Below the pieces are notes generated by a model. It made no database searches. It was given only the letters and a program-made list of their open reading frames with translations, and was not told where the DNA came from. Both the position numbers and the translations under genes were made by a program. Below, one piece after another: positions 1-14,940 of a stretch of 14,940 nucleotides of DNA (positions within the stretch are counted from its first letter, which is position 1; each line of letters starts with the position of its first letter). This DNA comes from a virus (lineage: Duplodnaviria > Heunggongvirae > Uroviricota > Caudoviricetes), in the IMG/VR virus record IMGVR_UViG_2875713109_000008, positions 1 to 14,940 of that record, one strand, 5' to 3'.

Positions 1-735
1 TTACTCCCTGACAGGGTTCGTAGGCCACTCAATATCAGGTGCAGTTGTTGTATTAACACGGTTCAGCAACACCCGATACTTTTTCCAGGCTTCCAGCAAC
101 GAGTTTTCTTCCTCCGTTGCGATTTCCAGATCTGCAGCATCCTGAAGTGGCGCAATATGCTCACTGGCTACCTGCATCAGGTTGTTTTTTGTTTCTTCCG
201 CCTCCCGGATCCGGAACAGTTTTTCTGCTTCCGTATCCTTCACCCAGGCTGTGCCGTTCCACTTCTGATATTCCCCTTCCGGCGATAACCAGGTGACATT
301 TTCCGGTAACGAGCCAAGTTCAGAAATAAATAACGCGTCGCCGGAAGCCACGTCATAGACGGTTTTTCCCCGATGATCTTCAACGAGATGCCACGATGCC
401 TCATCACTGTTGAAAACAGCCACAAAGCCAGCCGGAATATCTGGCGGTGCAATATCGGTACTGTTTGCTGGCAGACCTGTATGAGGCGGAATATATGCGT
501 CACCTTCACCAATAAATTCATTAGTTCCGGCCAGCAGATTATAAATTTTTATGGTCCGTGGTTGTTCACTCATTCTGAATGCCANNNNNNNNNNNNNNNN
601 NNNNNCGGTACTGTTTGCTGGCAGACCTGTATGAGGCGGAATATATGCGTCACCTTCACCAATAAATTCATTAGTTCCGGCCAGCAGATTATAAATTTTT
701 ATGGTCCGTGGTTGTTCACTCATTCTGAATGCCAT
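1..735 (-). CDS. tfa: Tail fibre assembly protein Tfa (lambda orf-194 family); reading frame carries an in-frame 129-bp repeat plus 21 N
   Basis: Translation [43 protein letters not shown]... matches lambda Tfa from memory. ATG at 735-733 overlaps the stf stop (TAATG). Natural length is likely about 194 aa once the duplicated block is removed. Confidence 0.85.
456..734. repeat. 129-bp exact direct repeat (456-584 and 606-734) bridged by 21 N (585-605); period 150 bp
   Basis: Seen directly in the sequence; copies are identical and the unit keeps the tfa frame (X run in the translation). Confidence 0.9.
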
Positions 736-3700
736 TATGCAAGCCTCACAATATAGTTAAATGCGATGTTTTTGACGGTGTTTTCCGCGTTACCAGCAGC
801 GTTAACGGTGATGGTGTGTCCATGTGAACCAATCGCAACGGAGTGCGTATGAGCACCAATACCGACAGTATGCGCGTGTGCACCTGCAGATGCTGCTGTG
901 CNNNNNNNNNNNNNNNNNNNNNTGACGGTGTTTTCCGCGTTACCAGCAGCGTTAACGGTGATGGTGTGTCCATGTGAACCAATCGCAACGGAGTGCGTAT
1001 GAGCACCAATACCGACAGTATGCGCGTGTGCACCTGCAGATGCTGCTGTGCCGGACAGTGAGTGGCTATGATTACCATCTGTACTGGTATTAGCTAACCA
1101 CCCCGTAGACATACCTACTGAGCCTTGTACACCCCAGGTATTTTGACCTGAGCTTGTATAACCATATTGATAAGTATCTTTAAAAACACTGGGGTTAAAT
1201 CGACGGCCATCTCTATGGCTGTGATTACCAGCTGCATTCGTGCTGCCACTTAAACTATGGGTATGCGCACCAGTGTTATTCGTGGATTTAGTGCCGTAAT
1301 CAAACGACGATGTGGTTTTCGTCCCCAAATCCGTACTGGATGCGCTGGCGCTGTGGGTATGCGATTTAATGCCATCCTGTTCCTGAGACAATACGGCACG
1401 ACCACTGGCGGGCTTGCCCTTAATCGTCCAGCCACGCATATCAGGGATCACGCCTGACGGATAAGCGGCTGCAAGTTTCGGGTAAGCAGATTTGTCAAAA
1501 GTCTGCCCCTGCATCAGGGCATAACCAGACGGAACGGTATCTGATGGCCACGGGATTGGTGCGCCGACTGGGTAGCTTTCTGGTGGAAGATTTTTCGAGG
1601 TATAAACTTCTGCCCAGTCTTCCTCAAAACCATAACCGTCTCTTGAAGAACGGTAGAACAGACCACCATTTCTGTAATGCGCCTTCATCTGCAAGGTCCG
1701 GCAACTTCCGACTCCGGTATAGAAGTTAACCAGAATATAGCTGTCGCCAGAGCGGGTGACATTATAAGCGCCTGATTCGGCATTCCAGGGAACGCCACCA
1801 TCCGCATCGGCATATGTATCCGTTGCCCTTCTGGCAAAAGCAGCCACATGCGCGGCGGTTAAAGTAATATCTTTGGAACCATCAAACTCAACACCAGAAA
1901 CCCGTCTTGGCGTTTGCAGCTTTGTTGCTGTTAATGCATTACCGTTCAGACTTGCGGACAGTTTGGTTCCAATAACCAGTTCGCCGGTTGCGTTATCAAT
2001 AGCAAACGGTCTTAATGTATTCCAGCCACCATAAACATCACCTTGATTGGTAAGCAGCAGGTAAGTTTTAGCGCCATCATTACGCCATAATGCCCCATAC
2101 TCCCCACCTATCATTCGAATCTGATTACCACCACGCGCTACAATTTCGTCTGTGGCAAAAAGTTTTTTGCACGACAAGTTATCGTTAACGATTAACGAAT
2201 GAGACTCATAAAAACCACGCCCACTCTTAAAATCAAGGATAACGTCCGCCGCGATACATTCAGTCGCCGGATTTGTTGCCCCAAACTTATAGGTCGTATC
2301 ATTAACAACGAGATCAGCACCAGGTGTGGATATTGACAGGCCATCTTCGATAAACGCAAAAACAGGGAAAGCAGCGCCATCAACATAGAACACAGAGCGC
2401 AAATCATCGCCCTTATTACTCATCATTATTGAGTGGATGGCTCGTTCATTGTTTTGATATTGCCAGAACATTCCATAAGCATAACGCCCCCTGTCAGTCC
2501 AGCCACCAGGCATAACAAATCCGTTAAACTCGCAGTTATTCATCGGATCGCCTGCGGTTCGCGTTGCCGTGGTGATAATGACCCTTGATGCCAGTTCGCT
2601 TACTGAGCCAGCAGAACGCATAACAACAACAGGGTAATATTTTCCAGATGTTGCACCTGCAGGAGCGTTAACCCGCACATAACGCATACCACGCTTATCA
2701 GCAAAGTCTGTTTTACTGACCGCGTTAATGTTGTTCAGGAAGCGTCCCTTATCGGGTATATCAGCGCCGTTCTGGTCTTTCTGCAGACGTTTCTCTGCAT
2801 TGTCATAGGCTGATTTTACTGCCTTTGGCGTTGCCGCCAGCGTTTCAGACGTACTGTTGGTCGCACTGCTGAGCTGTACTATCCCCTTTTTCGTCGTACT
2901 TGCATCCTCAAGCGCCACGGCGGATGCAATATCCTCTGCCCGTTTTGCCGCTGTCTCGGCGCGCGTTGCCGCGGATTCCGCCGTACTTTTGCTCTGTGCT
3001 GCCGCCGTCGCACTGCCAGCTGCCTCTGTCGCCTTCGTGGATGCTGTCGTGGCGCTGCCCTTCGCTGCGGACGCTTGTCTGGTCGCCTCATCTTTTGAAG
3101 CAGACGCCGATGATGCCGATGACGCCGCCGAACTGGCGGACGATGCGGCAGCCGTTTTTGAGGATTCTGCGCTGGTTTCCGACGCTTTCGCGTTCGTCTC
3201 GGATGTCTTCGCTGCGGAAGCAGACCTCGCTGCTGCGCTGGCCTGTTCAGTGGCTTCGCCAGCCTTCGTTGTGGCTGTTGAAGCAGACGATGCGGCACTT
3301 TCTGCCGATTTTCCGGCGGCGGTGGCACTGGCTGAGGCCTGCCCGGCACTTGTTGACGCGGCACTGGCAGACGACGCAGCCGCTGTTTTTGAGCCTGCCG
3401 CAGCCGAGGCGCTCTGTCCCGCTGCCGTTTCAGAAGACCTGGCGTTTGTCTCAGACGTCTTTGCCGCCTTCGCGGAATTGCCTGCCGCCGTTGCCGAGGA
3501 AGCGGCACTACTGGCGCTTGATGATGCGTTCGTTTCTGATGATTTCGCTGCCTCTTTTGAGGCCGCCGCATCCCGGGCTGAGGTGGCTGCTTCTGACGCC
3601 TTCGTGGTCGCGGCGGATGCAGAAGTGGCTGCTGATTGTTGTGACGCTGCCGCATTCGTTTCTGACGTTTTCGCCGCAGCGGCACTGGTAGCTGCCGCGC

Positions 3701-4283
3701 TTTTTGAGGACTCTGCAGCAGCAGCACTTTTCGATGCTTCACTGGCCTTTGTTGATGCCGTTCCTGCGCTGGAAGATGCTGACTGAGCCGACGACGCGGC
3801 CTGTCCGGCTGACGTGCTGGCTGCGCGTGCTGAGCCTGCAGCATCGGTTGCATGAGTTGCCGCCTCACTGGCAGATGTGCTGGCATCACTGGCTGACTTC
3901 TTCGCGGCTGCCGTGTTCTGTGCCACTGCGGACGCGTTACGCGCCACCTCTTCCACCATCAGTTCAAAACGTCGCAATGCCTCCGGACGGGCATCATCCT
4001 CCGTCATGGCACCGAGAAAATCATTCAGCGTACCGGGTTGAGAATCTTCATACACGGTAATGGTCCCGGCATGTGACGGCGGGAATCCCTCCACCAACAG
4101 AATAACGCTGTACTGCCCGTACTCAACGTCCATGCTGTAACGCCCGGCTTCATCCGGATTTTCTGAGGCCAGCGTGTTCACCACCACCGTGGTGCTGTTA
4201 CGTTTTGCTTTCAGCTGGATTGTGCAGTTCTGTACCGGTTTTCCTGTGCCGTCTTTCAGTACACCTGAAATCTTTACTGCCAT
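735..4283 (-). CDS. stf: Side tail fibre protein Stf (lambda Stf-like N-terminus, long Ala/Ser/Thr-rich central region, His-rich HxH C-terminal repeats)
   Basis: N-terminus [30 protein letters not shown]... and C-terminus ...[12 protein letters not shown] match lambda Stf from memory. ATG at 4283 is preceded by GGGGTG; the ORF track starts at a GTG at 4289. Contains the second N-bridged repeat. Confidence 0.88.
773..1051. repeat. 129-bp exact direct repeat (773-901 and 923-1051) bridged by 21 N (902-922); period 150 bp
   Basis: Seen directly; same architecture as the repeat in tfa. It duplicates the His-rich segment near the Stf C-terminus. Confidence 0.9.
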
Positions 4284-4294
4284 ATTCACCCCAC

Positions 4295-4320
4295 AAAAAA
4301 GCCCGCCTGAACCGGCGGGC
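4295..4320 (-). terminator. Rho-independent terminator between lom and stf on the minus strand
   Basis: On the minus strand a GCCCGCC/GGCGGGC hairpin (6-nt loop) is followed by TTTTTT, just upstream of the stf ribosome-binding site. Confidence 0.55.
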
Positions 4321-4347
4321 TGTCATAACACTGTGTTACCTGGCTAA

Positions 4348-4693
4348 TCAGAATTTATAACCGACACCCACGATGAAACCGTCAGTGCGCCAGTCACCAC
4401 TGCCGGAGCCTTCATAAGCAATATCAATGGCCACGGATTCGGTCGGGTTAAACTGCACGCCAGCCCCCCACGCCAGAGACGTGTTGCTGTGGCGACCGTC
4501 ATCACTTCCGGTCAGCACATCGTGCTTTTTCCCCTTGTTGTCAGTTACGCGAAGATAATCCCCGGAGAAAGTCGACACACGGCTGTAAGCTACACCCGCC
4601 ATCGCATACGCGCTGAACCATTCATTCACGCGCACAGACGGCCCCGCCATTACGCTGAACCAGCGGTTACGAACGGAATCTTCATGCCAGCGG
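4348..4693 (-). pseudogene. lom: 5'-truncated lom (Ail/Lom/PagC-family outer-membrane protein); only about the C-terminal 115 codons remain
   Basis: Translation ...RWHEDSVRNRWFSVMAGPSVRVNEWFSAYAMAGVAYSRV...GFIVGVGYKF matches the Lom C-terminus from memory. The frame stays open upstream but runs into cos-like sequence at about 4693, with no signal peptide or plausible start. Confidence 0.8.
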
Positions 4694-4890
4694 GTAACCT
4701 GTCGGATCGCCGGAAAGGACCCGCAAAATGATAATAATTATCATCTACATGTCACAACGTGCATCTACGCCATCAAACCACGTCAAATAATCAATTATGA
4801 CGCAGGTATCGTATTAATTGATCTGCATCAACTTAACGTAAAAACAACTTCAGACAATACAAATCAGCGACACTGAATACGGGGCAACCT
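4694..4890. other. Lambda right-end (cos-proximal) homologous region, reverse-complemented; homology stops at the cosN right terminus
   Basis: Minus strand reads ...GATCCGACAGGTTAC then lom sequence. Lambda's right end is recalled as ...GATCCGACAGGTTACG, and the downstream window sequence is collinear with the lambda right arm through bor. Confidence 0.6.
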
Positions 4891-4891
4891 C

Positions 4892-5086
4892 ATGTCAACG
4901 AAGAACAGAACCCGCAGAACAACAACCCGCAACATCCGCTTTCCTAACCAAATGATTGAACAAATTAACATCGCTCTTGAGCAAAAAGGGTCCGGGAATT
5001 TCTCAGCCTGGGTCATTGAAGCCTGCCGTCGGAGACTAACGTCAGAAAAGAGAGCATATACATCAATTAAAAGTGATGAAGAATGA
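4892..5086 (+). CDS. Small basic hypothetical protein (64 aa; Arg/Thr-rich N-terminus), conserved lambda right-end ORF (recalled as YlcI/DUF3950-like)
   Basis: ORF MSTKNRTRRTTTRNIRFPNQ... with a GGGG-rich region upstream of the ATG; position matches the lambda/DLP12 right-end gene set. Confidence 0.5.
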   Translation: MSTKNRTRRTTTRNIRFPNQMIEQINIALEQKGSGNFSAWVIEACRRRLTSEKRAYTSIKSDEE

Positions 5087-5250
5087 ACATCCCGCGTTCT
5101 TCCCTCCGAACAGGACGATATTGTAAATTCACTTAATTACGAGGGCATTGCAGTAATTGAGTTGCAGTTTTACCACTTTCCTGACAGTGACAGACTGCGT
5201 GTTGGCTCTGTCACAGGCTAAATAGTTTGAATGATTAGCAGTTATGGTGA

Positions 5251-5457
5251 TCAGTCAACCACCAGGGAATAATCCTTCATATTATTATCGTGCTTCACCA
5301 ACGCTGCCTCAATTGCTCTGAATGCTTCCAGAGACACCTTATGTTCTATACATGCAATTACAACATCAGGGTAACTCATAGAAATGGTGCTATTAAGCAT
5401 ATTTTTTACACGAATCAGATCCACGGAGGGATCATCAGCAGATTGTTCTTTATTCAT
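5251..5457 (-). CDS. Hypothetical protein, 68 aa (lambda p79 / YbcW-like)
   Basis: ORF of 68 aa at the position and size expected for the conserved small gene between bor and cos in lambda-like phages. Confidence 0.55.
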
Positions 5458-5742
5458 TTTGTCGCTCCATGCGCTTGCTCTTCATCTAGCGGTTAAAATA
5501 TTACTTCAAATCTTTCTGTATGAAGATTTGAGCACGTTGGCCTTACATACATCTGTCGGTTGTATTTCCCTCCAGAATGCCAGCAGGACCGCACTTTGTT
5601 ACGCAACCAATACTATTAAGTGAAAACATTCCTAATATTTGACATAAATCATCAACAAAACACAAAGAGGTCAGACCAGATTGAAACGATAAAAACGATA
5701 ATGCAAACTACGCGCCCTCGTATCACATGGAAGGTTTTACCA

Positions 5743-6153
5743 ATGGCTCAGGTTGCCATTTTTAAAGAAATATTCGATCAAGTGCGAAAAGATTTAAACT
5801 GTGAATTGTTTTATTCTGAACTAAAACGTCACAACGTCTCACATTATATTTACTATCTAGCCACAGATAATATTCACATCGTGTTAGAAAACGATAACAC
5901 CGTGTTAATAAAAGGACTTAAAAAGGTTGTAAATGTTAAATTCTCAAGAAACACGCATCTTATAGAAACGTCCTATGATAGGTTGAAATCAAGAGAAATC
6001 ACATTTCAGCAATACAGGGAAAATCTTGCTAAAGCAGGAGTTTTCCGATGGGTTACAAATATCCATGAACATAAAAGATATTACTATACCTTTGATAATT
6101 CATTACTATTTACTGAGAGCATTCAGAACACTACACAAATCTTTCCACGCTAA
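5743..6153 (+). CDS. Hypothetical protein (lambda p78 / YbcV-like); the longest ORF starts at a GTG at 5620
   Basis: ATG at 5743 is preceded by GGAAGG at suitable spacing and gives 136 aa; the 177-aa ORF from 5620 has no ribosome-binding site. Confidence 0.55.
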
Positions 6154-6443
6154 ATCATAACGTCCGGTTTCTTCCGTGTCAGCACCGGGGCGTTGGCATA
6201 ATGCAATACGTGTACGCGCTAAACCCTGTGTGCATCGTTTTTAATTATTCCCGGACACTCCCGCAGAGAAGTTCCCCGTCAGGGCTGTGGACATAGTTAA
6301 TCCGGGAATACAATGACGATTCATCGCACCTGACATACATTAATAAATATTAACAATATGAAATTTCAACTCATTGTTTAGGGTTTGTTTAATTTTCTAC
6401 ACATACGATTCTGCGAACTTCAAAAAGCATCGGGAATAACACC

Positions 6444-6737
6444 ATGAAAAAAATGCTACTCGCTACTGCGCTGGCCCTGCTTATTACAGGATGTGCTCAA
6501 CAGACGTTTACTGTTCAAAACAAACCGGCAGCAGTAGCACCAAAGGAAACCATCACCCATCATTTCTTCGTTTCTGGAATTGGGCAGAAGAAAACTGTCG
6601 ATGCAGCCAAAATTTGTGGCGGCGCAGAAAATGTTGTTAAAACAGAAACCCAGCAAACATTCGTAAATGGATTGCTCGGTTTTATTACTTTAGGCATTTA
6701 TACTCCGCTGGAAGCGCGTGTGTATTGCTCACAATAA
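6444..6737 (+). CDS. bor: Bor lipoprotein (serum-resistance-associated outer-membrane lipoprotein)
   Basis: 97 aa with lipobox LLITGC; MKKMLLATALALLITGCAQQTFTVQNKPAAVAPKE... matches lambda Bor from memory. Convergent with Rz as in lambda. Confidence 0.93.
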   Translation: MKKMLLATALALLITGCAQQTFTVQNKPAAVAPKETITHHFFVSGIGQKKTVDAAKICGGAENVVKTETQQTFVNGLLGFITLGIYTPLEARVYCSQ

Positions 6738-6743
6738 TTGCAT

Positions 6744-6769
6744 GAGTTGCCCATCGATATGGGCAACTC
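6744..6769. terminator. Perfect 26-bp palindrome (GAGTTGCCCATCGATATGGGCAACTC) between convergent Rz and bor; likely bidirectional terminator
   Basis: Seen directly: 11-bp arms around a CGAT core, overlapping the Rz stop codon. Confidence 0.45.
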
Positions 6770-6827
6770 TATCTGCACTGCTCATTAATATACTTCTGGG
6801 TTCCTTCCAGTTGTTTTTGCATAGTGA

Positions 6828-7144
6828 TCAGCCTCTCTCTGAGGGTGAAATAATCCCGTTCAGCGGTGTCTGCCAGTCGGGGGGAGGCTGCATTATCCAC
6901 GCCGGAGGCGGTGGTGGCTTCACGCACTGACTGACAGACTGCTTTGATGTGCAACCGACGACGACCAGCGGCAACATCATCACGCAGAGCCGTTCAGCGG
7001 TGTCTGCCAGTCGGGGGGAGGCTGCATTATCCACGCCGGAGGCGGTGGTGGCTTCACGCACTGACTGACAGACTGCTTTGATGTGCAACCGACGACGACC
7101 AGCGGCAACATCATCACGCAGAGCATCATTTTCAGCTTTAGCAT
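6828..7144 (-). pseudogene. Rz1: Rz1 o-spanin lipoprotein embedded in Rz; native frame is also broken by the 134-bp duplication
   Basis: Rz1 start MLKLKMM... is encoded at 7144-7124 and the Rz1 C-terminus ...[10 protein letters not shown] ends at 6828. The extra 134 bp (not a multiple of 3) separates them in frame. Confidence 0.6.
6857..7124. repeat. 134-bp exact tandem direct duplication (6857-6990 and 6991-7124), no N spacer
   Basis: Seen directly; the two copies are identical and adjoin head to tail inside Rz/Rz1. Confidence 0.9.
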
Positions 7145-7360
7145 CAGCTAACTCCTTCGTGTATTTTGCATCGAGCGCAGCAACATCACGCTGACGCATC
7201 TGCATGTCAGTAATTGCCGCGTTCGCCAGCTTCAGTTCTCTGGCATTTTTGTCGCGCTGGGCTTTGTAGGTAATGGCGTTATCACGGTAATGATTAACAG
7301 CCCATGACAGGCAGACGATGATGCAGATAACCAGAGCGGAGATAATCGCGGTTACTCTGT

Positions 7361-7858
7361 TCATTGCTGACCCCACAAACAGATTTCACGCTCAATCTCA
7401 CGACGAGTCATGAGACCTTTCCATTGCTTACCGCCAGCATATGTCCAGCGACGTAGCTGATCACATGCGCCTTTGATATCGCCCTGGTTTATTTTGCGAA
7501 GAAGCGTCGATGTTCTGAAATTGCCAGCACCCACGTTGTAAACGAATGAGTAAAGAGCGCCGCGCGTTGTTTCCGGTATATCGACTTTGATGTACGGGTT
7601 AATTTGTCTGGCGACAGTGGCAAGGTCTTTATTCAAGAGTGCTTTGCATTCTGCTTTGGTATACGTTTTACCGAGCATGATGTCTTTTCCGGTGTGTCCG
7701 TGACATACAGTCCATACGCCAACGATATCTTTGTATGGTACGTAGCTGACACCTTCCAGACCATCGTTACCACTTGGGCCAGTGATTAACACAGATGCTA
7801 TGGCAATAGCCCCGCCACCAATAGCAGCAGCAACGGCTTTTCGTAATGATGGAGGCAT
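7361..7858 (-). CDS. R: SAR endolysin, phage 21 R-type (T4-lysozyme-like muramidase with Gly/Ala-rich N-terminal signal-arrest-release segment)
   Basis: 165 aa, [44 protein letters not shown]...; start overlaps the S stop (TAATG). Confidence 0.9.
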
Positions 7859-8073
7859 TATTCACCTCTCGCAGCCTTGCGCTTATCTTCTTTAATCTTG
7901 AAATAAAGGTTTGTCAGATACGTCAGCAGGCCAAACACCAGACTACCCAGCACACCTATTGCCGCCCACTGTGAGGGCGTGACTTTATCGAGCAACTGTA
8001 AAAACCAGTACCCGGCACTACCTGCTGAGGTGCCATAGGCGACACCCGTTGTTAACTTATCCATGGATTTCAT
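7858..8073 (-). CDS. S: Pinholin, phage 21 S-type (71 aa, dual-start MKSM motif)
   Basis: [71 protein letters not shown]; GAGGTGGGG ribosome-binding site before the ATG at 8073. The ORF track's longer N-terminus has no ribosome-binding site. Confidence 0.88.
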
Positions 8074-8112
8074 AACCCCACCTCGCAGATGCGGGTGCTG
8101 TGTAATGGAAAT

Positions 8113-8135
8113 AAAAAGGCCACCTGACGTGGCCA
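8113..8135 (-). terminator. Rho-independent terminator right after the methyltransferase stop and before S
   Basis: On the minus strand a GGCCAC/GTGGCC hairpin (5-nt loop) is followed by TTTTTATTT. Confidence 0.55.
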
Positions 8136-8140
8136 CCAGA

Positions 8141-9193
8141 TTATTTCCCCACCAGCTCGTTTATCTCTTTCACTGTCTGGTTAAACCGCTCTGACTCAAG
8201 CTCAACACCTAAGGCCCGACGCCCCAGCGCCATTGCTGCTTTTATTGTGGAACCGGATCCCATAAAAAAATCAGCAACCAGATCACCAGGTCGACTACTG
8301 GCATTGATTATTTGCCTGAGCATATCCGCCGGTTTCTCACACGGATGTTTACCCGGGTAGAACTGAACGGGTTTATGCATCCAGACATCGGTATAAGGCA
8401 CGGAGACTGATACGGAGAAATAGCGCCGGAGAGATTTAAACTCATCCAGCAATTCAGAATATTTGCGATTCAGTGAATCATAAGATGCCACCAGCTGGTG
8501 GTGTGGTTGTTCCAGTTGTTGTTCCTGAAACTTCTCTGCCGCTATACGGGAAAACAGTGCCTGTAACTTCCGATAGTCAGCCTCATTCGGCAACTGCCAC
8601 TGACTGGCACCAAACCAGTGGGAAACCATATTTTTCTTACCTGTGGCTTCGGCAATTTGTTTTGCCGTTATACCCAGTTCGGCACGAGCATCCCTGAAAT
8701 ACGATATCAGCGGTGCCATTATGTGCTGTTTGAGTTCCCTTTCTTTTGCCGCATAGCCGTCACTTTTGCCGCGATATGGCCCCTGGTAATGTTCAGCAAA
8801 CAGAACGCGCTCTGTGGCAGGAAAATATGCGCGCAGACTTTCTTTATTACACCCATTCCAACGTCCGGACGGCTTCGCCCAGATGATATGGTTAAGCACG
8901 TTGAAACGTTCACGCATCATGATCTCAATATCAGATGCCAGGCGATGCCCACAGAACAGGTAAAGGCTTCCGGCAGGTTTCAACACCCGCCAGAACTGGG
9001 CCAGACAGTGGTCCAGCCACTTAAGGTAATCTTCGTCCCCTTTCCACTGATTGTCCCAACCGTTGGGTTTCACCTTGAAGTACGGCGGATCGGTAACAAT
9101 CAGGTCAATGGAATCATCAGGCAGGGACTGAATAAAATGCAGGCAATCAGCGTTGATTAAATCAACACTGTTTATTTTTACAGTATTTTTCAT
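8141..9193 (-). CDS. DNA methyltransferase, beta-class N6-adenine/N4-cytosine type (motif IV DPPY precedes motif I FxGxG); no restriction partner visible
   Basis: 350 aa with VTDPPYF near the N-terminus and FFMGSGST near the C-terminus. The start at 9193 has no clear ribosome-binding site. Confidence 0.82.
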
Positions 9194-9342
9194 GGATCAG
9201 TAAGCGTAACTCTGGTAGGCTCACTCTGCTTTTGCGCTAAAGCAGTGGGCCGTGGTTCGCTTGTGACCAGTAAGCATGAGCGAATGGCTGGCAGGTGCTA
9301 CCAACACCCACCAGCCGCCCATTTTCACAAATTAAAAGTCCT

Positions 9343-9561
9343 TCATAGCTGAAGGCGTCTGTAACAGCCGAACTGGTAATCTGCCAGCCCCGCCATAACC
9401 AACTGGGTCAGTATTAACTGACAGCGTTCGCGTGAAAGATATGTGTTTTGTGCAATCTCCCCGACTGTTGCCGGTTCGATGCTTAATTCATTAAAAACAA
9501 CTTTCGCCGTTTCTGTCATATCTTGCTGTTTTAACATGTCTTTTTTCCTTCTGGTTAACAT
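9343..9561 (-). CDS. Small hypothetical protein (72 aa), possibly helix-turn-helix-like
   Basis: ORF only; segment ATVGEIAQNTYLSRERCQLILTQLVMAGL resembles a DNA-binding helix pair. No clear ribosome-binding site, so start is uncertain. Confidence 0.35.
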   Translation of the reverse strand: MLTRRKKDMLKQQDMTETAKVVFNELSIEPATVGEIAQNTYLSRERCQLILTQLVMAGLADYQFGCYRRLQL

Positions 9562-9658
9562 GACATACCAATAACTCTTGTCTAAAAAGCCAGCAAGATA
9601 AAAAGTCAGTATTCACGACCACCAGCGTGTTTACCGTACTGCACCAGGTTTACAGGTA

Positions 9659-9685
9659 CAAAAAAACCCGCTCGACGGCGGGTTT
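9659..9685 (-). terminator. Strong rho-independent terminator on the late (minus) strand downstream of the antisense side of the OLD-like gene
   Basis: On the minus strand a CCCGC/GCGGG hairpin is followed by seven T; on the plus strand it is preceded by an A-tract, so it could act in both directions. Confidence 0.6.
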
Positions 9686-9788
9686 AAGTTGTGTGGCGAA
9701 GTAACCACTCTTGAGAGCATATCTGATTATTTACGATTGTAAATAATATATTCCCCCCCAATAATTAGATTGAGAAAACATTACCATA

Positions 9789-9817
9789 TTGATAATAAGG
9801 CAATTGACATAATTATA
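9789..9817 (+). promoter_or_regulatory. Candidate sigma70 promoter for the OLD-like gene (TTGATA, 17-bp spacer, ATTATA) in AT-rich leader
   Basis: Hexamers seen by eye in the AT-rich region; many alternatives exist there, so this is tentative. Confidence 0.25.
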
Positions 9818-9950
9818 AAAATCATTCTTGGTTGATTTTAAAACAACAAATGCACGATATTTACCCAATCATTGATGAATACATCTCTAAATGTTATAAA
9901 TTTATTGTTTTTCTAAAGATAACTCTCATTCATATCAGGAAAGATAAAAA

Positions 9951-11402
9951 ATGTCAGACATAAAAAATATACTAAAATGCATGTACTTTGATAAAAATAG
10001 ATACTCAAACTTTGGCTCCGTAATTAAAAGTCTAGAGATAAATGGATTTCGAGGAATAAAAAAACTAACATTAAATATAAATTTTCCGGTAACTGCAATA
10101 TCAGGGCTAAACGGCGCTGGGAAAAGCACTCTTGGGCAGTTAGCAATATGCGCATATAAAAAACCAGTTACAGCCCGTGAATATAAGAGATTATATATTA
10201 AAGATTTTTTCCCTGTATCTAAAGCCGATCCAGCCCCTTTCGATAATGACGCCAGTGTCATTTATAAATATGAAACAAATGATTCAACGAAAACACAAGA
10301 TGTGACTGTCACTCGCATAAAGTCTTCTTGGTCTGGATATAAAAGACAACCAGAAAGACACTGTTTTTACATTGGTTTTACTGTCTATATTCCAAAAGTA
10401 GAACGTAGAGATATAAGTGTTTATGGCGGTAAAGACTTTGATTTAACAGAGAGAAGAAGCGTCGACCATTCAGTAATATTGAAGATGGCAAAAATAATAG
10501 GTCATCCATATGATGATATCGCATTCCAAGGAATTTCTCATAGAGCACGTCGTTCAGAAATTGGTATTGTTGAAAGACTTGGGTATTCTTATTCTGAAAA
10601 TAACATGGGGTTTGGCGAAGGAAGAGTTCTTTATACGGTTGATATGCTTGAAACAGCTCCAGAGCAAAGTCTTTTCGTACTAGAAGAACCAGAAACATCT
10701 CTTCATGAAAGCGCACAGTATGAATTTGCAAAATATTTAATGGAAGTATGTCAACGTAGAAAACATCAAATAATATTATCAACACACTCAAGTGTGATAT
10801 TAAATGCTTTACCTCCTGATGCACGAAAATTACTTATTAGAGATCAGACTGGTGTCTATATCAAAGATGGAATTTCAACAACTCATGTGAGATCAATACT
10901 GTCTGATGGGCAGTTTAAAGGGCTGCATATTTGCGTAGAAGACCAGTTTGCAAAAGTTTTACTTAGTGAAGTAATTAGAGCAAAGCGGAGAGACATTCTT
11001 AAATCCATTCAAATCACTGATATTGGAGATAAAGATGCAGTCCGACAAGCAGTCGAGGTATTCAAGAAAGCAGGCCTTAATGTTATTGCCGTAAGAGATG
11101 CAGATGTTGGAGAAAACATTAAAGATGATTTATTTTCTTTCCCTGGCAATAGGCCACCAGAAGTAGAAGTATTTCAACATGAGGAAGTAAAAAAATTCCT
11201 CTACAAGGAGTATCATATTGATTTTGATTGGTTAATAAAAAAGGAAGGGATTAGTGATCATCACAATTACACTCAAGCAATTGCTAAAGAAGCAGAATGT
11301 GAGGAGGAAGTAATTAGAACTTTAGCAATTAAAAAATATATTGAAATTATTGATGAGAAATTTGACCCACTTATTACAAATATAGTAAGCAAAATAAAAT
11401 AA
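9951..11402 (+). CDS. OLD-family-like protein: N-terminal ABC-type ATPase fused to C-terminal TOPRIM-like domain; candidate defence or superinfection-exclusion nuclease
   Basis: 483 aa. Walker A GLNGAGKST (nt 10104-10130), Walker B LFVLEEPETSLH (from nt 10671), H-loop ILSTHSS, then ICVEDQ (Glu) and IAVRDADVGE (DxD) TOPRIM-like motifs. AGGAAA ribosome-binding site before ATG. Opposite strand to the flanking phage genes and much more AT-rich than them. Confidence 0.6.
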   Translation: MSDIKNILKCMYFDKNRYSNFGSVIKSLEINGFRGIKKLTLNINFPVTAISGLNGAGKSTLGQLAICAYKKPVTAREYKRLYIKDFFPVSKADPAPFDNDASVIYKYETNDSTKTQDVTVTRIKSSWSGYKRQPERHCFYIGFTVYIPKVERRDISVYGGKDFDLTERRSVDHSVILKMAKIIGHPYDDIAFQGISHRARRSEIGIVERLGYSYSENNMGFGEGRVLYTVDMLETAPEQSLFVLEEPETSLHESAQYEFAKYLMEVCQRRKHQIILSTHSSVILNALPPDARKLLIRDQTGVYIKDGISTTHVRSILSDGQFKGLHICVEDQFAKVLLSEVIRAKRRDILKSIQITDIGDKDAVRQAVEVFKKAGLNVIAVRDADVGENIKDDLFSFPGNRPPEVEVFQHEEVKKFLYKEYHIDFDWLIKKEGISDHHNYTQAIAKEAECEEEVIRTLAIKKYIEIIDEKFDPLITNIVSKIK

Positions 11403-11412
11403 CAAACCAGCA

Positions 11413-11447
11413 GGCGCTAATTACTAAAAACCTTGTACATTAGCGCC
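11413..11447. terminator. 9-bp perfect inverted repeat (GGCGCTAAT / ATTAGCGCC, 17-nt loop) between the convergent OLD-like gene and Q; candidate tR'-like or convergent terminator
   Basis: Seen directly; on the minus strand a T-rich tract follows (TGGTTTGTTATTTTATTTT); on the plus strand the U-tract is weak. Confidence 0.4.
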
Positions 11448-11574
11448 ACCCTCAAATAAATCAGTGGTTATTAAATCCCCACAAAAACATTAATATAAAG
11501 CACAAACAGTCCACCCTCCTTAATTTCATGCTAACAATACAAATTAAAAATCCAGATACTCATAAAATATCTTT

Positions 11575-11946
11575 CTAGATATTTGAGTCCATTTCCAATT
11601 CTATTTCTAACATTATCAACATACCTTCAATGATGCCTTCTGCCTTTTGCAATAAGCGCCCAACCCAGCAATCAGAACGCCCATGTTTACGGGCAAGCGC
11701 CATAAACGTCATACCACCTACATAATAATCTACTAATAAATCGTGCAAATCGCTGTTGTTCTTTTTCAGACGGGCCATGCACCCGCAAATGATCATCGCG
11801 TCATCGTCACAACATTGCGGGCGGGATTTTACTTTTGAAGGAAGTAATCCCTTAAAACCGGCAGCAATGGACGACCAGGTCACATCCTCATGATTATTAG
11901 CCGCCCATGCCCCCCAACGTTCAAGAACCATTTGAATATCACGCAT
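11575..11946 (-). CDS. Q: Late-gene antiterminator Q, phage 21/82 (QuuD-like) family
   Basis: [62 protein letters not shown]... with a cysteine-rich zinc-binding-like motif. GGAGG ribosome-binding site before ATG at 11946; an alternative upstream ATG at 11961 has none. Confidence 0.8.
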
Positions 11947-12091
11947 CAACTTCCTCCACAAAATCAGGCCAGCACGCCTATTGCCAACACACGGTCGATA
12001 AAACGAAATATCAGCTCCAGCTGGGAGCCATACTTCTCTTCAAATGCCACGGTATCCATTTTTCAACAATGTCACAGCAAGAGGTGAAATA

Positions 12092-12442
12092 ATGGAGCCA
12101 TACAGCCTCACACTCGATGAGGCCTGTCATTTTCTCAAGATATCCAGACCGACTGCCATTAACTGGATACGCACAGGGCGTCTTCAGGCAACACGCAAAG
12201 ATCCCACTAAGAATAAATCTCCTTACCTCACAACACGACAAGCCTGCATTGCGGCTCTTCAGTCTCCGCTGCATACTGTCCAGGTGAGCGCGGGTGATGG
12301 CATAACAGAGGAAAGAAAATGTCACTCTTCCGCAGAGGTGAAATATGGTACGCCAGTTTCACATTGCCGAACGGTAAAAGATTTAAACAGTCTCTTGGAA
12401 CAAAGGACAAAAGGCAGGCGACAGAACTCCATGACAAGCTAA
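12092..12442 (+). CDS. xis: Excisionase Xis, P22 type (116 aa)
   Basis: [38 protein letters not shown]... with GAGGTG ribosome-binding site; overlaps int by 124 bp. Confidence 0.8.
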
Positions 12443-13482
12443 AGGCTGAAGCATGGCGGGTCAGCAAACTTGGTGAAATACCTGATATAACGTTCGAGGA
12501 AGCGTGTGTCAGGTGGCTTGAAGAGAAAGCACATAAAAAATCACTGGACGATGACAAAAGCCGGATCGGATTCTGGCTTCAACATTTCGCAGGAATGCAA
12601 CTAAGAGACATTACTGAATCAAAAATTTATTCAGCAATGCAGAAAATGACGAACCGGCGTCATGAGGAAAACTGGAGACTCAGGGCAGAAGCATGCAGAA
12701 AAAAAGGGAAACCTGTTCCAGAATACACGCCAAAACCAGCGTCCGTTGCAACGAAGGCTACGCATCTTTCATTTATAAAGGCCCTACTAAGAGCCGCAGA
12801 GCGTGAATGGAAAATGCTGGATAAGGCACCAATTATTAAAGTGCCTCAACCAAAGAATAAACGGATCCGCTGGCTGGAGCCCCATGAAGCACAAAGGCTG
12901 ATTGATGAATGTCCGGAGCCATTAAAGTCTGTTGTTGAATTTGCACTGGCAACAGGCTTAAGACGCTCGAACATCATCAACCTTGAATGGCAACAAATAG
13001 ACATGCAGCGCCGGGTGGCATGGATAAACCCGGAAGAGAGTAAATCAAACCGCGCAATTGGCGTTGCGCTGAATGATACTGCATGTCGCGTTTTGAAAAA
13101 ACAAATCGGGAATCATCACCGTTGGGTATTTGTGTACAAGGAAAGCTGTACCAAACCAGACGGAACGAAAGCGCCAACAGTAAGGAAGATGCGGTATGAC
13201 GCAAACACAGCCTGGAAAGCGGCGCTGAGACGGGCTGGTATTGATGATTTCAGATTTCACGACTTGAGACACACCTGGGCAAGTTGGCTGGTTCAAGCCG
13301 GAGTCCCGTTGTCAGTGTTACAGGAAATGGGAGGCTGGGAGTCTATCGAAATGGTTCGTCGATATGCTCACCTTGCACCTAATCACCTTACCGAACACGC
13401 ACGGCAAATAGACTCGATCCTGAACCCATCGGTCCCAAATTTGTCCCAGTCAAAAAATAAGGAAGGTACTAATGATGTGTAA
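12319..13482 (+). CDS. int: Tyrosine integrase, P22 Int type (thrW-specific)
   Basis: 387 aa, [48 protein letters not shown]... with C-terminal catalytic region [10 protein letters not shown]...VRRYAHL; ends 14 nt from the tRNA-Thr 3' end. Confidence 0.95.
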
Positions 13483-13496
13483 CTTATTGATTTTAA

Positions 13497-13572
13497 TGGT
13501 GCCGATAATAGGAGTCGAACCTACGACCTTCGCATTACGAATGCGCTGCTCTACCAACTGAGCTATATCGGC
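13497..13572 (-). tRNA. thrW: tRNA-Thr (anticodon CGU)
   Basis: Minus strand GCCGATATAGCTCAGTTGGTAGAGCAGCGCATTCGTAATGCGAAGGTCGTAGGTTCGACTCCTATTATCGGCACCA folds as a cloverleaf with CGT in the anticodon loop and a CCA end. Confidence 0.9.
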
Positions 13573-13686
13573 CCTGAAAGGACATGTTCACGAACGTGAA
13601 TCACGGTGGACAAGGTTAAAACTAACCGGGCGATGCGTCAATGGCCTTGTGAATCAAATGGCTACTTTTGCATCACCCGGTTTTAT

Positions 13687-14940
13687 TTACGCACGAATGG
13701 TGTAATCACCAATGCCGATCCACTTGTAAGTGGTCAGTGCTTCCAGCCCCATTGGGCCACGCGCGTGGAGTTTTTGTGTGCTTACCGCCACTTCCGCACC
13801 CAGACCAAACTGGCCGCCGTCGGTAAAACGCGTAGAGGCGTTAACGTAAACAGCGGACGAATCCACTTCGTTAACAAAACGCTGGGCGTTGCGCATATCG
13901 CGGGTCAGGATCGCATCGGAGTGTTGTGTGCCGTGTTCACGAATATGGGCGATGGCATCGTCAAGATCGCTGACGATTTTGACGTTCAAATCTAATGACA
14001 GAAACTCATCGTCATACTCTTCGGCTTTAACAGCAACCACCTTCGCAGGGCCTGCCTGCAACTGCGCCAGTGCAGCTGCATCTGCGTGTAATGTCACGCC
14101 GCTTTCCGCCATTTGTTTGCTTAATGCGGGCAGGAAGCTATCGGCGATGTTTTTATTCACCAGCAACGTTTCAACCGTATTACATGTGCTCGGACGCTGA
14201 GTTTTCGCGTTGACGATCACTTTTAATGCTTCAGCGATCTCTACACTTTCATCAACGTAAATATGGCATACGCCTATACCACCTGTGATCACCGGGATTG
14301 TCGACTGTTCACGGCACAGTTTATGCAAACCAGCGCCACCACGCGGGATCAGCATGTCGATGTATTTATCCATACGCAGCATTTCACTGACCAGCGCACG
14401 GTCAGGATTATCAATCGCCTGCACGGCACCCGCCGGTAAGCCGCAGGATTTCAGGGCGTCCTGAATCACCGCCACCGTTGCAGCGTTAGTGCGACACGTT
14501 TCTTTGCCACCGCGCAGGATCACCGCATTACCGGTTTTCAGGCACAGCGAAGCGACATCAACCGTCACGTTCGGGCGCGCTTCATAAATCACGCCAATAA
14601 CCCCCAGCGGTACGCGACGACGCTCAAGACGCAGGCCGCTGTCCAGTACGCTGCCATCGATTACCTGCCCCACCGGATCGGCGAGGTTACACACCTGGCG
14701 CACATCATCGGCAATGCCTTTCAGCCGTGCGGGCGTCAGTGCCAGACGGTCAAGCATCGCTTCGCCAAGGCCATTGGCACGCGCGTCAGCAACATCCTGG
14801 GCGTTAGCGTTGAGGATGATTTCGCTTTGTGCTTCCAGTTCATCGGCGATTTTTTCCAGCACGCGATTTTTTTCGCGGCTGGAGAGTTGCGCTAATTTAT
14901 ACGAGGCTTGCTTCGCGGCAATGCCCATTTGTTCCAGCAT
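13687..14940 (-). CDS. proA: Gamma-glutamyl phosphate reductase (proline biosynthesis)
   Basis: Complete 417-aa [53 protein letters not shown]...; aldehyde dehydrogenase-like fold; start codon at the window's last base. Confidence 0.96.

Follow-up and report, generated by a model that had tools for sequence, protein, structure and literature searches.

A candidate one-gene anti-phage defence cassette encoding a divergent HEC-04/IbfA-type ATPase–TOPRIM protein in a thrW lambdoid prophage

Anti-phage defence by a single protein that joins an ABC-type ATPase to a TOPRIM domain was validated in Escherichia coli by Payne et al. with Hma-embedded candidate 04 (HEC-04), the tested protein being WP_044502283.1 of E. 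coli MOD1-EC5853 (bioRxiv 10.1101/2024.01.29.577857). HEC-04 lowered the plaquing of several phages in E. coli, was toxic when over-induced, and lost its defence in the K62A and E319A/D375A/D377A variants (bioRxiv 10.1101/2024.01.29.577857). The blocked phages are named as T4 and T5 in the study of IbfA, a HEC-04 homologue from the IncI1 plasmids R64/pUA1135 that is described as acting against a P22-like phage by abortive infection (PMC12111858). Here we describe a gene of similar design in a 14,940-nucleotide stretch of viral DNA (IMG/VR record IMGVR_UViG_2875713109_000008, positions 1 to 14,940; hereafter the window), which holds a lambdoid prophage remnant beside thrW and proA. An earlier note on this DNA, made from the letters alone, had proposed an AT-rich insert next to the antiterminator gene Q as a candidate prophage-borne defence gene, and family placement together with the cargo-slot context now favours that function by analogy. 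We consider it likely that the insert serves a thrW lambdoid prophage as a defence cassette of a single gene against other phages, and that its product is a divergent HEC-04/IbfA ATPase–TOPRIM nuclease. In this reading, and with the same probability, the N-terminal part is an ABC ATPase of the SMC/Rad50/PtuA-like kind, and the effector fused to it is a metal-dependent TOPRIM nuclease of the OLD/AriB type that ends in a helical bundle.

The protein had at first been left unplaced, or possibly in a new subfamily, with the suggestion that defence-system models be run. When this was done with PADLOC-DB, the best model was HEC-04 (PDLC04149; 159 bits, E 3.9e-47), ahead of the next model by a factor of two, and with this family validated in 2024 and already represented in PADLOC-DB v2 the description as unplaced no longer stands. 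The runners-up were ATPase-Toprim_I-B (77.7 bits), AriA (66.7) and NsnB (65.6), followed by HEC-01A and GajA. The HEC-04 match spans residues 5-410 of 483 and profile positions 7-403 of 494 (coverage 84% and 80%), which is comparable to the match of the tested HEC-04 protein to its own family model (E 5.2e-53, coverage 80%/83%), and HEC-04 was likewise the top-scoring PADLOC model for homologues from Klebsiella and Pseudomonas and for one more distant homologue. When the window protein was compared by BLASTP with the first 399 residues of the tested HEC-04, taken from the supplementary table of the preprint, the two were collinear over residues 1-402 at 26% identity (E 5e-30), and in this register K58, E330 and D383/D385 correspond to K62, E319 and D375/D377 of HEC-04. 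The K58A and D383A/D385A mutants proposed by the earlier note thus fall on the same residues as the substitutions that abolish defence by HEC-04. A 521-residue plasmid protein (L003, CP098935.1, IncF replicon), probably IbfA-like and presumably an IbfA orthologue, shares 23% identity with the window protein and 24% with HEC-04, and it scores 109 bits with the HEC-04 model versus 159 for the window protein. With identities of 26% and 24%, the window protein and the plasmid protein stand equally close to the tested HEC-04. A top, near-full-length profile match, the Walker A Lys, the TOPRIM Glu and DxD motifs and a lone gene were all found, and we assign the protein as a divergent member of this already validated HEC-04/IbfA family. 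Reasoning from these relatives and from context, defence would be its best-supported function.

The proposed fusion of an ABC-type ATPase to an OLD/AriB-like TOPRIM domain is borne out by conserved motifs and by the agreement of AlphaFold and Foldseek. All quoted motifs lie where they had been placed and are conserved across the family (Table 1). In an alignment of 73 sequences with identity down to 22%, N54, K58, T60, G220, G222, E223, E246, H252, H279, S280, E330, D331, D383 and E404 are invariant, with D385 kept in 65 and H438 in 69 of the 73. E404, which lies in the conserved LPGxxPPE motif, is a candidate further metal ligand. The AlphaFold model of the full protein has a predicted local distance difference test score (pLDDT) of 92.7, and the structural comparison that had been suggested gave as top Foldseek matches the Thermus scotoductus OLD nuclease (TsOLD; E 1.3e-13), GajA and the retron Eco8 OLD nuclease. 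The best structural matches to a model of the isolated C-terminal domain were AriB, BpOLD, TsOLD and GajA. The inserts in the modelled ATPase consist mainly of beta strands (residues 97-128 and 164-215) with only short helices. At the sequence level, Pfam detected solely ABC/SMC-type ATPase families (AAA_15, AAA_21, AAA_23), and a whole-protein search of the PDB returned TsOLD as the sole significant match (E 5.8e-07), over the Walker B/H-loop stretch only. Since the PDB sequence matches are limited to that stretch, sequence alone is insufficient for the TOPRIM domain, which is established by the structure models only and whose sequence-level call is weak.

The reading frame itself is a real, intact gene, and a chance open reading frame can be dismissed because of its RefSeq annotation (WP_032083250.1 in strain H8, "ATP-dependent nuclease") and its 736 homologues (E<1e-5, word-indexed search). 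The best 120 homologues are 57-78% identical, nearly all 482-484 residues long, and come from Klebsiella, Vibrio, Pseudomonas, Aeromonas, Shewanella, Methylomonas and Acidithiobacillus. Among 50%-identity cluster representatives, an exhaustive search gave 3072 at E<=1e-3, 128 of which reach E<=1e-30. A search for WP_032083250.1 in the accessible literature, which is not complete, found nothing. The coordinates, strand and base composition claimed for the gene were all reproduced: GC content is 0.342 in the reading frame, 0.329 in its leader and 0.331 in its trailer, versus 0.444 in Q, 0.481 in the methyltransferase gene and 0.469 in the window (the lysozyme gene is at 0.48), and its plus strand opposes Q and the methylase, holin, lysozyme and Rz genes, all on the minus strand. 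Together with its exchange in relatives, this composition upholds the view of the insert as independently acquired AT-rich cargo. A ribosome-binding site, AGGAAAG at 9937-9943, was read directly 7 nt 5' of the ATG. The antisense open reading frames 9935-10261 and 10378-10824, considered as a second cassette gene, are without support.

Table 1. Features of the window discussed in the text, in order of position; ranges within the protein are given as residues.
Feature	Position	Strand	Basis or remark
Rfam IS009 (RF02111)	44-242	-	full-length match, 226 bits; inside tail-fibre assembly gene
Side tail fibre gene	735-4289	-	1184 amino acids
Lom-like fragment	4348-4650		then tail-fibre genes
DUF1398 gene	5620-6153		AT-rich, GC 0.33
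bor	6444-6737		after Rz
N6/N4 DNA methyltransferase gene	8141-9193	-	PADLOC MTase_II, E 3e-152; between late-promoter leader and holin
Intrinsic terminator (tR'-like)	9664-9685	-	8-bp GC-rich stem plus T7
Putative late promoter (PR'-like), TTTACA-16-TATGCT	9716-9743	-	scan match; conservation begins at -35
Candidate promoters from scan	9737-9765 and 9789-9816	+
Exchangeable cassette	9744-11587		blastn against loci L001 and L002; boundary alignments
AT-rich leader, presumed own promoter	9744-9950	+	consensus scan and direct reading
By-eye candidate promoter, TTGATG...TGTTATAAA	9872-9877 (TTGATG), 17 nt, 9892-9900 (TGT-TATAAA)	+
ABC-ATPase–TOPRIM gene	9951-11402	+	483 amino acids, ATG start; open reading frame list
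ABC ATPase head	9951-10850	+	residues ~1-300
Walker A, GLNGAGKST	residues 52-60		K58
Signature-like MGFGEG	residues 219-224
Walker B and catalytic Glu, LFVLEEPE	residues 241-248		E246
H-loop, STHS	residues 277-280		H279
TOPRIM domain and C-terminal helical bundle	10902-11399	+	residues 318-483
TOPRIM Glu motif, ICVEDQ	residues 327-332		E330-D331 after strand 1
TOPRIM DxD motif, IAVRDAD	residues 379-385		D383-x-D385 after strand 3
LPGxxPPE motif			invariant E404; near-invariant H438 also in C-terminal part
Hairpin GGCGCTAAT...ATTAGCGCC	11413-11447		just 3' of stop codon, between convergent ATPase and Q genes
Antiterminator Q (PF06530)	11575-11961	-	Pfam E 1.8e-51; convergent with ATPase gene
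Integrase gene	12319-13482
tRNA-Thr(CGT) gene (thrW)	13497-13572
proA	13687-14940

The existence of the insert was confirmed, and its extent had to be redrawn. In place of the 9562-11574 first given, the exchangeable cassette has the limits shown in Table 1, and bases 9562-9743 (182 bp) are conserved phage backbone present in 1276 E. coli records. At the left edge, similarity to the related prophage L002 resumes exactly at TTTACA, and at the right edge it resumes inside the last Q codons, the last few of which differ in alignment from relatives without the cassette. In most related prophages the counterpart is a 603-bp segment with a gene for a 148-residue protein, also on the opposite strand (as in L002). 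Cargo of the stx type sits downstream of the late promoter and its terminator. The window cassette occupies the interval from the Q stop codon to the -35 of the putative late promoter, thus upstream of that promoter, and the likeness to the stx or nmpC position drawn in the earlier note has to be given up. Because the cassette is upstream of the putative late promoter and divergent from it, expression should be Q-independent. By its position, the -35 and -10 pair would be a Q-dependent late promoter with a leader terminator. The terminator, a strong intrinsic one, lies ~25 nt past the presumed transcription start (fold -20.1 kcal/mol, z -2.5), and its counterpart is annotated in phage Ayreon. 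The leader of the ATPase gene is presumed to hold a promoter of its own on the strength of pattern matches. The hairpin beyond the stop codon may act as a terminator; its fold is -17.1 kcal/mol with z -3.79 on the plus strand and z -1.15 on the minus strand, there is no U-tract on the plus strand, and a T-rich tail is present on the minus strand. A scan of leader and trailer against Rfam found no RNA families.

To survey the position of the cassette, a 30-mer of the conserved leader (window 9673-9702, minus strand) was sought in IMG/VR. At least 120 contigs (loci L016-L135) match it, and in at least 108 of these a PF06530-type Q lies upstream of the 30-mer. Among the matches listed, Q and the 30-mer are between 68 bp (an empty slot) and 3778 bp apart, and the cargo is mostly AT-rich and on the strand opposite Q. 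At least 20 classes of cargo (90% identity, 80% coverage) occur in the at least 108 contigs, and the window cassette recurs in at least two IMG/VR contigs at 99.9-100% identity. In this sense the short interval between Q and the putative late promoter is hypervariable, a site at which one group of lambdoid prophages exchanges AT-rich cargo on the opposite strand. About one quarter of the cargo types among the matches listed match defence models, and they include another ATPase–TOPRIM protein of 592 residues beside a C5-methyltransferase (HEC-04, E 2.9e-34), a PDC-S60 match (E 2.6e-97), a TIR-TM match (E 1.9e-57), and a DUF262 protein of the NsnA/PD-T4-2-like kind, accompanied by a HEPN protein and a Dcm-type methylase. 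Such cargo supports, by association, a defence role for the window gene. The commonest cargoes, which include the 148-residue protein, a 214-residue protein and several versions of a small multi-transmembrane (multi-TM) protein followed by a protein of ~300 residues, have no Pfam or PADLOC matches.

Some of these other cargoes deserve a brief description of their own. The commonest among the matches listed, the 148-residue protein (L002:5247-5693; L094 and at least 27 other contigs), carries a lipoprotein-type signal, LLSATIISGC, and might serve in surface exclusion. At least seven sequence-diverse two-gene cassettes consist of a multi-TM protein of 150-220 residues followed by a soluble protein of 270-340 residues (L125, L090, L114, L106, L072, L073, L069, and orf53/orf54 of phage cdtI at L015:3255-4643), the soluble protein of cdtI being a DUF6731 protein. 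The order of a multi-TM gene and then a soluble one is like that of Kiwa. Two versions scanned in PADLOC (cdtI orf53/orf54 and the 308-residue protein of L125) matched nothing, and these pairs are candidates for unrecognised defence systems. A description of a Q-adjacent defence hot spot was not found in the searchable literature, the coverage of which is incomplete, so that novelty is unproven. The pairing of Q with the conserved 30-mer offers a simple set of anchors for finding further prophage defence genes.

The wider distribution of the gene points in the same direction. Strain H8 (NZ_CP010172.1) carries a complete thrW prophage with the same segment, window positions 7117-12057 being 98.7% identical. 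A 75%-identical Klebsiella homologue is found in a small integrative element that looks satellite-like and also encodes an integrase, AlpA, a putative AbiC, a HEPN protein and a protease-capsid fusion. The Pseudomonas homologue adjoins a ThsB-TIR-like gene, and that of Aeromonas lies in an integrative island and adjoins a DUF3427/HNH gene. The neighbours are all different among the E. coli, Klebsiella, Pseudomonas and Aeromonas loci, which fits a self-sufficient single gene that moves on mobile elements, and the proposal of a lone gene was sustained in that no helicase or partner gene was found in the cassette or beside the homologues examined. The methyltransferase gene of the window was rejected as a partner because it is conserved in all relatives regardless of slot cargo; it is probably an orphan phage-protective methylase. 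In a nucleotide search of phage-isolate databases, only the 182-bp backbone was matched and the gene was in no sequenced isolate. The sole relative in a phage protein search was a split, 30%-identical gene pair of Burkholderia phage phiE094. The phiE094 locus (L004, 2328-5677) comprises two adjacent open reading frames annotated as "AAA family ATPase", possibly one split gene, beside an integrase and followed by a gene for a 570-residue protein with a deaminase domain.

Under the defence reading, we infer the following course for the 483-residue protein, from its expression and trigger to its substrate, which may be DNA or RNA, and to the outcome. In the lysogen, the gene would be transcribed from the promoter in its own AT-rich leader, divergent from the late promoter and with no need for Q. 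The ATPase head, with its family-specific inserts, would sense an infection cue of a superinfecting phage. Binding or hydrolysis of ATP would then license the TOPRIM site (E330, D383, D385 and probably E404) to cut nucleic acid, and the incoming phage would be stopped, possibly at the cost of the cell through abortive infection.

Several findings weigh against this reading. The defence phenotype is known from relatives that are only 23-26% identical, so neither phenotype nor phage range is transferable to the window protein. The IbfA study found altered phage transcription, and nuclease action was not demonstrated (PMC12111858). Residues 411-483 fall outside the HEC-04 profile match. The TOPRIM domain first read from motifs finds support in the structure models and stays below threshold at the sequence level: the Pfam family OLD-like_TOPRIM (PF20469) reached 13.0-14.3 bits versus a cut-off of 23.2, appeared in 16 of 41 C-terminal domains, every time below threshold, and a C-terminal profile compared by sequence with the PDB gave nothing significant. 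The proposed promoter of the gene is a pattern match, and promoter-like sites show no enrichment, with 13 found versus 9.5 +/- 3.0 expected in shuffles. Finally, of 5426 complete E. coli genomes 11 contain the full 2013-bp stretch, each time with the annotation "ATP-dependent nuclease", and with the cassette in so few genomes population-level evidence of selection is absent.

The alternatives differ in how well they survive. Somewhat short of an even chance, in our judgement, is a joint reading in which the 483-residue clade is a separate ATPase–TOPRIM immunity branch and the slot is a lambdoid defence hot spot; to the same tentative degree, this clade, very uniform in length at 482-484 residues and spread across Gammaproteobacteria, would possess a distinct helical module at the C-terminus and presumably a trigger and a substrate of its own. 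If this is true, the many slot genes that lack annotation would include new defence systems, notably the pairs of a multi-TM protein with a protein of ~300 residues, sometimes DUF6731. It is unlikely that the protein works as a fused form of PARIS, in which the ATPase would sense a phage anti-restriction protein, for instance Ocr, whereupon the TOPRIM domain would cut host tRNA and not DNA and so shut down translation; the C-terminal model does match AriB, and the combination of an AriA-type ATPase with a DUF4435 TOPRIM effector was not found in the window protein. Less likely still is a strict Class 1 OLD nuclease of the P2 Old type, which would act on DNA as an exonuclease/nickase, exclude lambda-like phages and be toxic to recBC mutants. 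Class 1 is defined by an ATPase followed by a TOPRIM domain in a single lone-gene protein (PMC10568477), an architecture that the window protein has, and TsOLD is both its best Foldseek match and its only significant PDB sequence match, with a RefSeq name, ATP-dependent nuclease, to the same effect. Against this stand the OLD sequence models, since PF20469 stays below its cut-off and PADLOC Old is outside the best 25 models (all >=35.7 bits) versus 159 bits for HEC-04. The protein is also 45-100 residues shorter than TsOLD (528 residues) or P2 Old, the TsOLD sequence match is confined to the Walker B-to-H-loop stretch, and where TsOLD and GajA have a helical dimerisation domain, the monomer model of the window protein shows the beta-rich inserts and short helices described above. 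A non-defence role, in DNA repair or recombination (RecF/SbcC-like) or in prophage stabilisation, is very improbable: RecF, Rad50 and MukB were rejected on fragmentary P-loop matches in NCBIfam of 15-20 bits versus cut-offs of 172-1087, coiled coil and Mre11/SbcD or RecO/R partners are absent, and the gene, which is AT-rich and has moved horizontally, occurs sporadically and turns up in mobile elements and beside defence genes.

The remainder of the window shows a prophage that looks heavily deleted or mosaic, since it departs from the H8 prophage upstream of 7117 (region 4300-7120) and head or tail genes are absent from the region beside the tail-fibre genes. Compared with the complete H8 prophage, the window lacks ~8.7 kb at ~12051-12057, where the early genes from DUF968 to xis are missing between the integrase region and the sequence upstream of Q. 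The resulting junction is contiguous in none of the 5426 complete E. coli genomes and stems either from a deletion specific to the strain or from a misjoin in the assembly. Two runs of 21 N (585-605 and 902-922) are each flanked by duplicated sequence, with the same peptide stretch of the tail-fibre genes repeated on both sides, and look like scaffolding or gap-filling artefacts, not biology. The side tail fibre gene has a long Ala/Ser/Thr-rich low-complexity stretch (2800-3900, GC 0.60-0.64), which gives rise to long spurious open reading frames in other frames, such as 2857-3786 on the plus strand and 2879-3889 on the minus strand.

As a divergent HEC-04/IbfA protein, the product of the window gene adds a prophage-borne clade to a family known from one tested chromosomal and one plasmid protein. 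It is also a compact and confidently modelled subject for asking by what means one chain with an ABC ATPase and a TOPRIM domain could sense infection, and whether the target of cleavage is DNA, as for OLD nucleases, or tRNA, as for AriB. In architecture it resembles Class 1 OLD, PARIS and Gabija. With Class 1 OLD (P2 Old and TsOLD, PDB 6P74) it shares domain order, a single gene and, in P2 Old, a prophage precedent, whereas it is shorter, shows no evident helical dimerisation insert and fails the Pfam and PADLOC Old models. PARIS is a two-protein system of a sensor and a released effector, and an AriA/AriB partner is absent here and beside the homologues examined. Gabija requires the GajB helicase, and no adjacent UvrD-like GajB or other helicase was found in the cassette or beside those homologues. 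IbfA is likewise a single-gene ATPase with TOPRIM on a mobile element, and the plasmid protein and the window protein both match HEC-04; the difference is that IbfA is plasmid-borne whereas the window gene is prophage-borne. HEC-04 differs in that its tested member is Hma-embedded, whereas the window gene occupies a lambdoid prophage slot, and in that the two are only 26% identical with the last residues of the window protein outside the profile. What they have in common is one partnerless chain of ~480-490 residues in which an ABC ATPase is followed by a TOPRIM domain with the catalytic residues in register.

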